A DNA stretch of 64,000 nt from Eledone cirrhosa (Eukaryota): assembly GCA_964016885.1 (NCBI GenBank), contig OZ024755.1, forward strand, positions 9,052,001-9,116,000. The letters run 5' to 3'. Both the position numbers and the translations under genes were made by a program. The notes under the pieces are model-generated. The model had not been told where the DNA came from and searched no databases. It saw nothing but the letters and a program-made list of their open reading frames with translations. Below, piece by piece: positions 9,068 through 58,627 of this stretch. The first letter of the stretch is position 1. Each line of letters opens with the position of its first letter.

Positions 9068-9241
9068 GGGGATCTGCTAAGGTGAAACAATTGTTCTCGG
9101 TATGGTGAACTAACTGTTGTGTAACCACTTCTACCTAACTCGTCTCATGGACTGAGTGCTCTACCACTACGGATATTACCTTCCAGTGTTCTAACACTAT
9201 ATATATATATATATGTGTATGTATATATTTAATATAGAAAG

Positions 9242-9290
9242 GCTTCTACAGGACTAGAACTGTTTCATTCGGGAGAAATCATCAGGAAGC
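9242..9290 (-). ncRNA. Complete hammerhead ribozyme, family A (element 9228-9425)
   Basis: GCTTC-CTGATGA-T-TTC-tccc-GAA-T-GAA-ACAG-ttctagtc-CTGT-A-GAAGC; GUA site. Confidence 0.8.
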
Positions 9291-9337
9291 TTACTGATGA
9301 TTTCTCCCGAATGAAACAGTTCTAGTCCTGTAGAAGC
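9289..9337 (+). ncRNA. Second, oppositely oriented family A hammerhead
   Basis: Inverted copy of 9242-9290 with one stem I mismatch next to the core. Confidence 0.7.
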
Positions 9338-9528
9338 CTTTCTATATTAAATATTTATACTCTGCTTTGTATTGAGTACCTTACTTACTGTGGTTTACCC
9401 CGATTGAACCCGAGATAAACTTATGTATATATATATATATACGAAATATAAACGGAAACGACAAAGCAAACAACACAATATAATGTACATATATATTAGT
9501 TTAATTCTTGATATAATAGGGAAAAAGA

Positions 9529-9562
9529 CTTTATGTTTCGGACACTAGTCCTACATCAGAAG
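9529..9562 (-). ncRNA. Degenerate hammerhead, same family as 39295-39330 (element about 9440-9620)
   Basis: CTT-CTGATGT-AGGAC-tagt-GTCC-GAAACATA-AAG; core A9 and stem III G are mutated. Confidence 0.6.
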
Positions 9563-9949
9563 ATAGAGTGAGAAATAGAGATGAAATAGAAAAAGTGTGT
9601 AAGAGGAGGAAAGAACGGTTGTTTTGAAATGAATTCTTCTAGAACAGTGTATATACTCAAGTAAACATCGAATATCTGAAGATTATGTTTTTAGATTAAA
9701 TCTATGGGGTTGACTATTATATGGATGCTAATTACAAGGGACTGAAGTTGATACTACATTCAAAATATCAAATCAATAAACAGAAGCTCAATTGGACTCT
9801 AAAGGAAGAAAACAAAAATCTACGTATTACAGAATTAATACGAATGTTTCTACGCATCAAAATACATTTCCAACTACCAAAACACAAATAAAACGGCGTA
9901 TATATTTCCTCTTGCAAATATCAGAACGTAATAACGCAGAAAAACTAAT

Positions 9950-10330
9950 ATCTTCTTTGAATACCATATGTCTAACACCTGTGGACATGCTTACAAGATC
10001 AGAAAACAGTACAGCGCCCATGACTTTCGGAAACATATTTTCATGCTCAGAGCTGCTGAAGCATGGAACTACCTGCATCAGTTGTCAGCTGTGGGGGCAC
10101 TGCATCCTTTAAAACTTCCATGCTTCCCGAAATTCCCCAACACAAACACCTGATATTACCCCTCCATACACACGCACGGCAGTGTGTGCGTGTCTGTATC
10201 TGTTTGTATATCATGACTCATACACTGTTCACTTTCCTGACATTTGTATATTATTCTATGTACCATACATGCACCTTTGATAAGTTATAGTGCACCTGAG
10301 CACTGTATACAATAATTTTCATTATTATTA
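9950..10330 (+). mobile_element. CR1-group LINE 3' end (ORF2 C-terminus, UTR, (ATT)n tail)
   Basis: SNTCGHAYKIRKQYSAHDFRKHIFMLRAAEAWNYL matches the CR1 pattern TRGH..K....RK.FF..R...WN.L. Confidence 0.8.
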
Positions 10331-11002
10331 TAACAGTTTACGTTCAGGATAATATCTTGATTAAAAAAATGTTGGACTTTTCTACTCTGGAGAGGTAGAG
10401 TCAATTTTTATATGAGAAACATTGGAAAATCGTAGGTTTTCAGCAAACATTGGAGTGGGGGTTGATTTTAAACGAGTACATATGATAGATATTTTATGAA
10501 TATATAGTTTTGTATGATCTTTTAGTATGTGGAATGATCAGTCATTTCAGACTAATTTTGCGAGCAGATAATTCCTGTGGCTGAATCAACAGCAACACTT
10601 GTCGTTGGAAATGAGGGCGGTGAATATATACACGTGTGTGCCTCTGTGTGTGTGAGTGAGTGTGTGTGAGTGTGTGTGCGCGTGTGTGTGTATATATATA
10701 TATATGTATATATATCTATATATATATATACATATATATCAAAGGTATATATTGAGTTAGAAACTCAAAATACTCTCTTACAATTAAGTAGCTCAAAGAA
10801 AGAGATTTTTCAGAGCAATATATTATAATTGAATATAAAAGAGAAATAAACACAGATATATAGACATATGTGTTCAAATCGTAAGGGAGCGGGTTCGCTT
10901 GGGTGAAAAAAATACTAACTATAACCAATAGGGTTTGCCAGACTCAATTTAAAAGAATAAATCAAGAAAATAAATACAAACCGATATAGGGTAACTACCA
11001 GA

Positions 11003-57054: not shown

Positions 57055-57205
57055 TGGGTACCATTTATACTTCCAGCTGAGTGTCCTGGAGCAACGTGAA
57101 AAAAGGGTCTTGCTCAAGGACACAACACACCGCGAAGGTTCGAACTAATAATTTTACGATCGCGAACCGAAAACCCTAACAATTAAGCCATGTGTCTTCA
57201 CACAT
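57055..57205 (-). mobile_element. SINE family 2 head and CORE
   Basis: CAGCTGAGTGTCCTGGAGCAACGTGAAAAAAGGGTCTTGCTCAAGGACAC..TTCGAAC. Confidence 0.8.
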
Positions 57206-57269
57206 CATATAGTATTAATTTCATCATAACCACAATTTACATCACTACTAGCTCCATTGTGGAGTCTGT

Positions 57270-57710
57270 ACGTGGACATACTACCTGCTAGAAATACAGC
57301 CAAATCACCCTCAAATCATACTTTCATTTACATCACCGCTACCAATTCCACCAGTCATATCATGGAAGGGGCTCTTTCATGAATACTCTAGCTGCTAGAA
57401 ATAGCAGTCAAATCACCCTCAAATCCCACCTTCCTTTACACCAATGCCAGTGCCAGCAACACCTGTTCCACCAGCAATAATAGACAGGGCCTCTGCATGG
57501 AAAATCTACCTCCTAGAAATAACAGCCAAAGCCCTCAGAAATAGCACTCTACCTTTTTTCTTTTTTAAAAAAGGAACCGTTGATAATGAGTCTGGACCTG
57601 GCTTAGTTGCATATAGAGAAAAACGATGGGGTTGTCACGGTTGGAATGACTTTTATCATATAACTAGTTTATGAGGGTTTACCTGAGTCTAAACAACACC
57701 AACAACAGCA
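57270..57710 (+). repeat. Three tandem copies of a retroposon-tail-like unit, then a (CAA)n-tailed end
   Basis: CTGCTAGAAATA.CAGCCAAATCACCCTCA recurs near 57282, 57388 and 57506. Confidence 0.6.
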
Positions 57711-57929
57711 AACAGCATTATCTAGAACAATAGCAACAATAACAACAATATCAACAACAAACATTTTATACAGAAGCAATAACAACAACAACACAAAAAG
57801 CAAACCACATTATATAAAACAAAACAGCATTAACAACAACAACAACAATACAAAAGCCACTGTAACTAACACTAACATCGAAATATATCGCACCCTTTTC
57901 TTATACACTTCTTCACCGCCAAAAATTGT

Positions 57930-58110
57930 CGCAGCAGCAGTAGTAGCAGAAGCAGCAGCAGCAGCAGCAGCAGCAGCAGTAGTAGTAGTAGTAGTAGTAG
58001 TAGTAGTAATAGTAGTAGTAGTAGTAGTAGTAGTAGTAGTAGTAGTAGTAGTAGTAGTAGTAGTCCCAACAGCAGCAGCACCACCACCACTACCACCACC
58101 ACCACCACTA
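57930..58110. repeat. (AGC)n/(AGT)n/(ACC)n compound microsatellite
   Basis: Direct observation. Confidence 0.95.
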
Positions 58111-58463
58111 GTGTTGCCGCTTCATCCCCCAAGATGCCATTCCAGCTGTTACCATCTCTGTTAGAAGACCTGCCGATACCAACTTCACGCGCTGACAGCA
58201 GCAGCCACCACCACCGCCGCCGCCAAACCAAATCAGAGCTAGAACAGGAGATGATAGGACAAAAACCCAAACACATAATACCAAACAAAAACAAAAACAA
58301 ATGACAAACACAAACAATTAAGCAAATAAAAATCCACAGGAAAATGAATAAATATAAAATTTAAAACGAATCATATATGTATATATAGTTATATATATAT
58401 AGTAATATATACATAGTTATATATACATATATATATATTGTTATATATGCATATATACAACTG

Positions 58464-58627
58464 GACATTTCTGATTATTTCATGCGAATGAAACAGTTCT
58501 AGTCCTGTAGAAGTCATTTATATATATATATAATAAAGATGCCTACACTCTACCAATGTATTGAGTACCTTTTTTAACGGTGGTTACCTCCACGCCACAA
58601 CTCGGAAATTTACACATTACAACCGTA
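58464..58627 (+). mobile_element. Family A element with core-mutated hammerhead (58464-58515)
   Basis: GACATTT-CTGATTA-TTTCATGCGAAT-GAAACAGTTCTAGTCCTGTA-GAAGTC, then TATTGAGTACC tail. Confidence 0.75.

Follow-up and report, generated by a model that had tools for sequence, protein, structure and literature searches.

In the present study, we analysed a 64,000-nt stretch of the genome of Eledone cirrhosa (assembly GCA_964016885.1, contig OZ024755.1, positions 9,052,001 to 9,116,000; hereafter the window, with coordinates counted from its first base) and found that a recurrent short motif, GAGYRC, is the 3′ strand of a bulged stem-loop, not a stand-alone word. The hairpin lies in the tails of short pieces that end at (TA)n arrays and are likely the ends of Penelope-like elements (PLEs) of the Hydra clade. 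We consider it rather likely that this structure is an RNA binding site of the PLE protein, putatively positioning the reverse transcriptase (RT) at its start sites. A preliminary description of the window had proposed a common cis-signal recognised by the mobilising RT/endonuclease. That reading is still the best one, and it is strengthened by covariation, by fixed distances to both 3′ ends and by the presence of the hairpin in autonomous Hydra-clade consensi; what it applies to, though, is one strand of a bulged stem and not a word of six to ten letters.

The stem comprises four base pairs (RCYC/GRGY), carries a bulge of 1-2 nt on its 3′ side, closes an inner stem-loop and is followed by an unpaired RC. 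The inner stem has 2-5 bp or more, the two strands are 11-73 nt apart (4 nt in element H; labels as in the list below), and the TATT seen ahead of the motif consists of the last two inner-stem bases plus the bulge. An RCTC that pairs with GAGY was found 5′ of nearly every true site. The full descriptor, picked after inspection of the data and broadened to R and Y once published consensi had been seen, occurs in five of the eight window families (A to E) versus 16 of 565 other GAGY sites (binomial p about 1e-6), and a random 150-mer contains it with p 0.001-0.008. Outside these five, family F nearly conforms and element G fails. A second, weaker word downstream (GG, 1-14 nt, TACC) is present in five of the eight families versus a background of 4%.

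When ten sequences were aligned, 67 of the 70 cells paired (95.7%), counts that are depressed by a one-base misalignment of family D at the bulge, and two-sided changes were found at three of the seven pairs. The covariation score of 0.32 stands against 0.135 ± 0.037 in shuffles and was reached by none of the 500; slid controls were 10-46% paired. Summed over ten copies, the pairs are 71 Watson-Crick, five G-U, one A-C and one other. The predicted stem probability is at least 0.8 only in C2, D, E, F and H, and 0.3-0.6 in A1, A2, B2 and C1. A covariance model built from ten copies recovered its training copies and the duplicate E2, with nothing new below E 1.9, and missed C2, G and H. At gathering score, Rfam gave no family match for the hairpin and only a tRNA-like match in the window (21720-21791); among the best 150 of 307 Rfam E-value matches, nearly all were miRNA models on repeats or palindromes. 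Selenocysteine insertion sequences (SECIS) as well as twister and hepatitis delta virus (HDV) ribozymes were rejected for want of Rfam support, and a splice donor appears to be excluded by the GAGC variants, which have no GT.

The carriers are pieces of 100-580 nt, each ending at a TA array and most with an array on both sides; C2 and A4 have none on the 5′ side. They are listed here with the distance to the array in nucleotides:

9225-9425 (+): family A, copy A1; an inverted and a direct arm that both carry a full hammerhead, with cores at 9294 (+) and 9285 (−) and cleavage after 9332; the tail runs on to the TA array at 9426; hairpin 9359-9379 (+) (ACTC, 3-bp inner stem, TT bulge, GAGT, AC), 46 nt.
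49889-50051 (−): family A, copy A2, with inverted arm; hairpin 49950-49930, stem GCTC/GAGT with G-U at pair 1, 41 nt.
58468-58625 (+): family A, copy A3; hammerhead 3′ half and an internal TA run; hairpin 58547-58568, 57 nt.
18290-18435 (+): family A, copy A4, decayed; hairpin 18357-18378 with one C-A mismatch (GAATAC).
31845-32011 (+): family B, copy B1, with inverted arm; hairpin 31940-31965, 4-bp inner stem, 46 nt.
22041-22234 (−): family B, copy B2; palindrome with hammerhead stem III, cleavage after 22138; hairpin 22112-22087, 46 nt.
54461-54724 (−): family C, copy C1; full hammerhead whose loop II is long, with the core at 54699 and cleavage after 54597; the hairpin spans 54535-54500, 39 nt.
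31522-31788 (+): family C, copy C2; full hammerhead (core 31547, cleavage after 31648); stem closed by GAGT at 31739, a 5-nt duplication placing GAGTGC at 31744.
8996-9197 (+): family D; palindrome, inverted arm with a full hammerhead (core 9061, −); hairpin 9138-9159 with a 1-nt bulge and G-C as first inner pair, 38 nt.
50923-51503 (+): family E, copy E1; long inverted arm, full hammerhead (core 51171, cleavage after 51305, loop II about 115 nt); hairpin 51374-51456 with 73 nt between strands, 47 nt.
51554-51965 (+): E2, a tandem duplicate of 51092-51503 (99.8% identity), not independent; hairpin 51836-51918.
32146-32299 (+): family F; short palindrome; hairpin 32207-32254 with compensatory GCTC/GAGC, 45 nt.
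21441-21540 (−): element H; degenerate hammerhead stem III; plain stem ACTC/GAGT 21502-21489 with a 4-nt loop, a probable variant of the hairpin, 53 nt.
37169-37306 (−): element G; GAGTAC at 37219-37214 and the GG..TACC word downstream, 45 nt.
6989-7191 (+): element J; TA-flanked palindrome, then 5′ strand and inner stem (7163-7177).
36728-36895 (−): element I; full hammerhead of the Hydra type, with the core at 36886 and cleavage after 36817, that runs up to a TA array.
62256-62305 (−): solo family-B-like arm that ends at the short end, with TA arrays on both sides.

Two ends recur among these copies. The long 3′ end lies 38-57 nt 3′ of the motif, at the TA array (mean 45, SD 6, 12 copies), although the gap between the two strands spans 4-73 nt; this spacing is tighter than the 40-70 nt given in the preliminary description. 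The hammerhead cleavage site is found about 40-145 nt 5′ of the motif on the same strand. The short end is marked by the inverted arm, which is joined head to head with the direct arm in eight copies and stops, at TA, 1-12 nt before the stem in all eight of these palindromes, representing six families. With a window that was set afterwards, the chance of such clustering is about 7e-7 for uniform ends or 1e-5 if any TA site could serve. With the arm stopping just ahead of the stem, the tail, i.e. the part found at one end only, begins with the hairpin.

Two rival accounts have to be weighed against this geometry. The GIY-YIG endonuclease could read the inverted repeat as DNA, in the form of a cruciform or a single-stranded intermediate. 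In D. virilis, recognition of plasmids by the endonuclease required the Penelope tail (cited in PMC11167929), and the G-U bias seen here is weak (5:1). However, half-sites 4-73 nt apart, a one-sided bulge and compensatory changes are ill-suited to a duplex-DNA site, and the target is plain (TA)n; we deem a DNA-level role distinctly unlikely. Quite improbable, in our view, is shared ancestry alone, with the hairpin as a remnant free of selected structure and the short end as an AT-rich microhomology site. The families are related, several stems are thermodynamically marginal, and descriptor and windows were set after data inspection; yet the pairs are kept with two-sided changes between families whose flanks cannot be aligned, and the hairpin recurs in cnidarian, echinoderm and arthropod consensi.

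The six-letter word itself carries less weight than the structure. All six TATTGAGTAC sites of the preliminary description are exact in position and strand, as are the positions of its variants at 9151 and 31743. A seventh copy had been overlooked at 56585 (+), where the nearest TA array is 1785 nt off; the count of seven compares with 0.22 in dinucleotide shuffles. Other variants fared less well: the word assigned to 51448 is present but begins one base earlier, at 51447, and the one assigned to 2422 begins at 2423, follows a minimal hammerhead of another type and has no matching stem. The variant at 50266 (−) lies 78 nt from the TA array, beyond the range claimed for it, and forms only a bulge-less stem adjoining a degenerate ribozyme; it is at most a possible member. 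The word at 37211 is palindromic and, being 45 nt from the array on the minus strand versus 89 nt on the plus strand, fits as a member on the former and not on the latter. Further members had gone unlisted at 18373 (+, decayed), 21494 (−), 32249 (+, GAGC variant) and 51913 (+, duplicate of 51451), while 8930, 25191, 28235 and 56585 were rejected for lack of pairing or of position. GAGTRC falls 30-70 nt ahead of a TA array at 12 of its 46 sites, against 2.5 ± 1.6 (maximum 8) in 150 local dinucleotide shuffles with the TA arrays fixed in position. By kinship, the 12 sites reduce to six families plus two stray sites (25191 and 28235). This family-level count of eight equals the top shuffle value, and the copies are not independent; the word alone is therefore only modest evidence.

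Hydra-clade PLEs are defined by one open reading frame (ORF) that encodes an RT and, at the C terminus, a GIY-YIG domain without CCHH, with DKT and CxCX5C motifs, and they insert almost always into (TA)n (Craig et al. 2021, PMC8557442). The usual anatomy of PLEs includes truncation, inversion and a tail on one side (PMC3846280). The carriers are inserted into (TA)n, their sense-strand hammerheads are canonical, with stem III near the 3′ end in the layout of the ribozyme table in the PMC8557442 supplement, and the eight palindromic copies are 5′-truncated, have an inverted copy next to them and carry a tail on one side. Hammerheads of type I that are complete, with a stem III of 4-5 bp, occur in A1, C1, C2, D (inverted arm), E and I, 3′ halves in A2, A3 and B, and remnants in F and H; G and J have none. 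While the clade is defined by protein motifs and the carriers are known from non-coding ends, they likely are Hydra-clade PLE ends. The families had been described as unrelated; their common Hydra-type hammerhead, TA targeting and tail anatomy instead make it likely that they belong to one clade. A Naiad PLE, which would combine TA targeting with the lack of a canonical hammerhead, does not fit, canonical hammerheads being present.

The same hairpin, with compensatory changes, was found by eye at the termini of four of the six published Hydra-clade consensi in the PMC8557442 supplement. The full hairpin (GCTC/GAGC) lies 26 nt from the 3′ end in Hydra-2_Amil (coral) and 25 nt from it in Hydra-2_Ajap (sea cucumber). 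Hydra-1_Ajap (sea cucumber) bears two hairpins 36 nt apart at its 5′ end, from base 3 and upstream of the ATG, and Hydra-1_Crog (sea louse) bears a 5′ hairpin from base 7 (GCCC/GGGC) and a second one, with one mismatch, 43 nt before the 3′ end. Beyond ribozyme and hairpin, no likeness between the window elements and these consensi was noticed by eye. Six 8-mers, chosen after the Hydra ends had been seen, gave 25 matches in the same supplement; by eye, the hairpin accompanied four of four in Hydra and one of 21 elsewhere. The 3′ ends of five cephalopod Naiad consensi showed no such hairpin by eye. In a single pattern scan of prokaryotic genomes for hammerhead words plus motif, 120 loci were retrieved, none with a TA array within 80 nt, eight with stem III and two with the hairpin, and we take these as chance; the sole locus with both stem III and hairpin (L085) is ordinary GC-rich sequence without ribozyme stems.

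The 5′ positions raise a further alternative, namely that the hairpin is a 5′ untranslated region (UTR) element of the next tandem unit, serving translation control, RNA stability or a promoter-linked function, and is carried passively in the tail. In both Hydra-1_Ajap and Hydra-1_Crog it was seen, by eye, a few tens of bases before the first ORF ATG, and PLE pseudo-long terminal repeats (pseudo-LTRs) hold the start of the next unit along with promoter-like words (PMC3846280). Such a role would leave the fixed distances of both 3′ ends to the stem base, across loops of 4-73 nt, unexplained, and we regard it as unlikely. The preliminary description had also offered a 3′-processing element; the GAGT strand might then be an alternative hammerhead partner or cleavage site. 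Stem III indeed reads ACTC/GAGT in family C and in five Hydra consensi. Families A, B, D and E, however, combine the same hairpin with other stem III sequences, the motif is not followed by a stem I partner, the U of the GUH-like cleavage triplet is missing from GAGC variants, and the ends abut the target (TA)n arrays. Hammerhead cleavage was, moreover, dispensable for insertion of the anole PLE in vitro (PMC11167929). We found no support for processing and consider it very improbable.

Returning to protein binding, two consensi carry tandem hairpins, which hints, rather speculatively, at one common rule: a start a few bases 5′ of the bound hairpin would give both ends. The element RNA would continue past the hammerhead to include the beginning of the next tandem unit, the protein would bind the hairpin and its endonuclease would cut (TA)n, and cDNA would start at a UA a few bases 5′ of the bound hairpin. 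More speculatively, the full-length RNA may carry two tandem hairpins: starting at the first would produce the short end, whereas starting at the second would produce the long end and copy the first hairpin into the tail. A dimer of the protein, sitting on both hairpins, might then use the two strands of the cut TA palindrome and so generate lopsided inverted repeats. The anole element, the one PLE studied in vitro, starts reverse transcription inside the RNA at two adjacent sites bounding the tail, needs RNA downstream of the hammerhead and has a protein predicted to be dimeric (PMC11167929). It is by analogy with this element, and with the stem-loop bound by the protein of stringent long interspersed elements, that we putatively assign the window hairpin to protein binding and start-site choice. 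Only tentatively do we extend the scheme to its widest form, in which tandem bulged hairpins conserved from coral to arthropod load a dimeric, telomerase-related RT onto two start sites that both lie a few bases 5′ of a hairpin, a rule that would yield both the tail and the lopsided inverted repeats, and any hairpin RNA could be mobilised into (TA)n by proteins of the clade.

Several observations weigh against a protein-bound RNA hairpin of this kind. Among the 150 longest of the 180 non-repetitive ORFs of the window, Pfam detected no RT and no GIY-YIG domain, i.e. no autonomous element, and the second hairpin rests on two published consensi. By eye, Hydra-1_Obim has no clear hairpin and Hydra-1_Amil only a weak one, and the 3′ UTR of Naiad_Mmer has a full hairpin about 450 nt from its 3′ end (PMC8557442 supplement), which reflects either chance or a wider spread of the motif. 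Within the window, element I has no hairpin at all, being either an exception or a copy that stopped at the short end; element J has half a hairpin and no GAGT strand; element G has neither an intact 5′ strand nor a hammerhead, and its membership is uncertain; the stem of element H has no bulge; and the family F hairpin includes one inner mismatch. The predicted stem probability is low in A3 (0.02) and B1 (0.11), the outer stem covaries little within the window (one G-C, one G-U), kinship among copies inflates the covariation shuffle test, and the 5:1 G-U bias is no proof of RNA over single-stranded DNA. Besides, the left boundary of the duplicate E2 is off the predicted site, and an AT-rich microhomology site alone could account for the short end.

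The carriers resemble the Hydra-clade PLEs of PMC8557442 in their (TA)n targets, in a type I hammerhead whose 4-bp stem III lies close to the 3′ end, and in 5′ truncation with an inverted copy and an optional tail. They differ in tail length (about 60-140 nt versus 30-40 nt) and in being 100-580 nt copies without an ORF. A word search of the main text of that paper found no mention of hairpin, stem-loop or bulge. Poseidon PAc of the anole (Frangieh et al. 2024, PMC11167929) likewise has structured RNA after the hammerhead, two start sites bounding the tail and an AT-rich target, yet it belongs to another clade and starts in a stem-loop that is AC-rich and lies inside the ORF; the portions of the text covered contain no conserved bulged stem or cross-family motif, although figures S1B and S2C may show a comparable fold. 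In the stringent long interspersed elements (LINEs) ZfL2 and UnaL2, the protein binds a 3′-tail stem-loop, stem recognition being general and loop recognition specific (Hayashi et al. 2014, PMC4176376). The window elements share with them a conserved stem and variable loop close to the 3′ end (in the window, 38-57 nt before the long end), whereas element class and sequence are different; their hairpin lies at the RNA 3′ end and is always copied, while one end of the window elements stops short of it. An origin from LINEs or partner short interspersed elements (SINEs) was dismissed, as the carriers have PLE hammerheads and inversions and the SINE-like families of the window do not align with them. 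Non-LTR retrozymes are also short, non-coding, PLE-related sequences with type I hammerheads, but consist of head-to-tail tandem units, whereas the window elements are dispersed, inverted and TA-embedded (PMC7229834, bioRxiv 10.64898/2026.07.22.740005). Only E1 and E2 are adjacent direct copies, with a TA array between them and inverted arms, and a retrozyme assignment was therefore rejected.

In the portions of the literature covered, including PMC8557442, PMC3846280, PMC7229834 and bioRxiv 10.64898/2026.07.22.740005, we found neither the hairpin nor its relation to the two ends described; most subscription papers, together with Repbase and Dfam, lay outside this coverage, so that a prior mention is possible. 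A literature text search for the 10-mer TATTGAGTAC returned, among the matches listed, only papers unrelated by title. The elements are of a known kind, and the hairpin in the PLE tail is probably undescribed.

Some further features of the carriers and their surroundings were noted. Unusually long stem/loop II inserts (about 45-115 nt) occur in the hammerheads at 31547-31648 (+), 54699-54597 (−), 51171-51305 (+) and 36886-36817 (−), which were missed at the Rfam gathering score. Minimal or degenerate hammerheads of another PLE type lie at 2370, 39299 (+), 9559 (−) and 50403 (−), those at 9559 and 39299 forming one family; the minimal-hammerhead ends at 2370, 9559 and 39299 all lack the hairpin. 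PLE ends of different families share TA arrays in four clusters (8996-9441, 31522-32327, 36728-37427 and 49889-50420), suggesting repeated insertion beside earlier copies. Between elements I and G, a TA-flanked 164-nt piece (36950-37113, +) has a 6-bp inner stem ahead of GAGT, and the isolated last 35-40 nt of family B lie between a TA and a TACA array at 4752-4790 (+). Short perfect inverted repeats surround TA arrays at 8935-8995 (abutting element D, after GAGTGC at 8930), 28048-28129 and 50084-50145, and are possibly fold-back products at TA palindromes.

The window as a whole has 33% G+C, is rich in microsatellites and looks like non-coding animal DNA. Pfam gave four weak, sub-cut-off matches on the 150 ORFs, none related to mobile elements; a Na/K-ATPase beta match at 36302-36586 (−; E 1.3e-4, below cut-off), whose translation looks non-coding, is probably due to chance. 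A tRNA-like stretch at 21719-21792 (−; tRNA-Ser by ARAGORN, 33 bits in Rfam) may be a pseudogene or a SINE head. An imperfect 300-nt inverted-repeat element at 18981-19288 is not TA-embedded, and its arms, with A/B-box-like words, are presumably tRNA-derived. An abundant SINE-like family of up to 97% identity occupies 3016-3243, 13185-13368, 17311-17499, 23432-23649, 26818-26999, 43577-43748 and 47436-47588, and a second one 35541-35684, 41048-41181, 45932-46102 and 57070-57202.

How PLEs choose the start of reverse transcription, and where tail and inverted arm come from, has been named as open (PMC8557442), and for a single other clade there is a partial answer (PMC11167929). The 20-nt covarying RNA element keeps fixed distances to both ends and offers a direct handle on start-site choice. 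Besides, the hairpin can serve as a marker for classing tiny TA-embedded fragments, and it invites comparison with how RNA is recognised by telomerase, to which PLE reverse transcriptases are most closely related.

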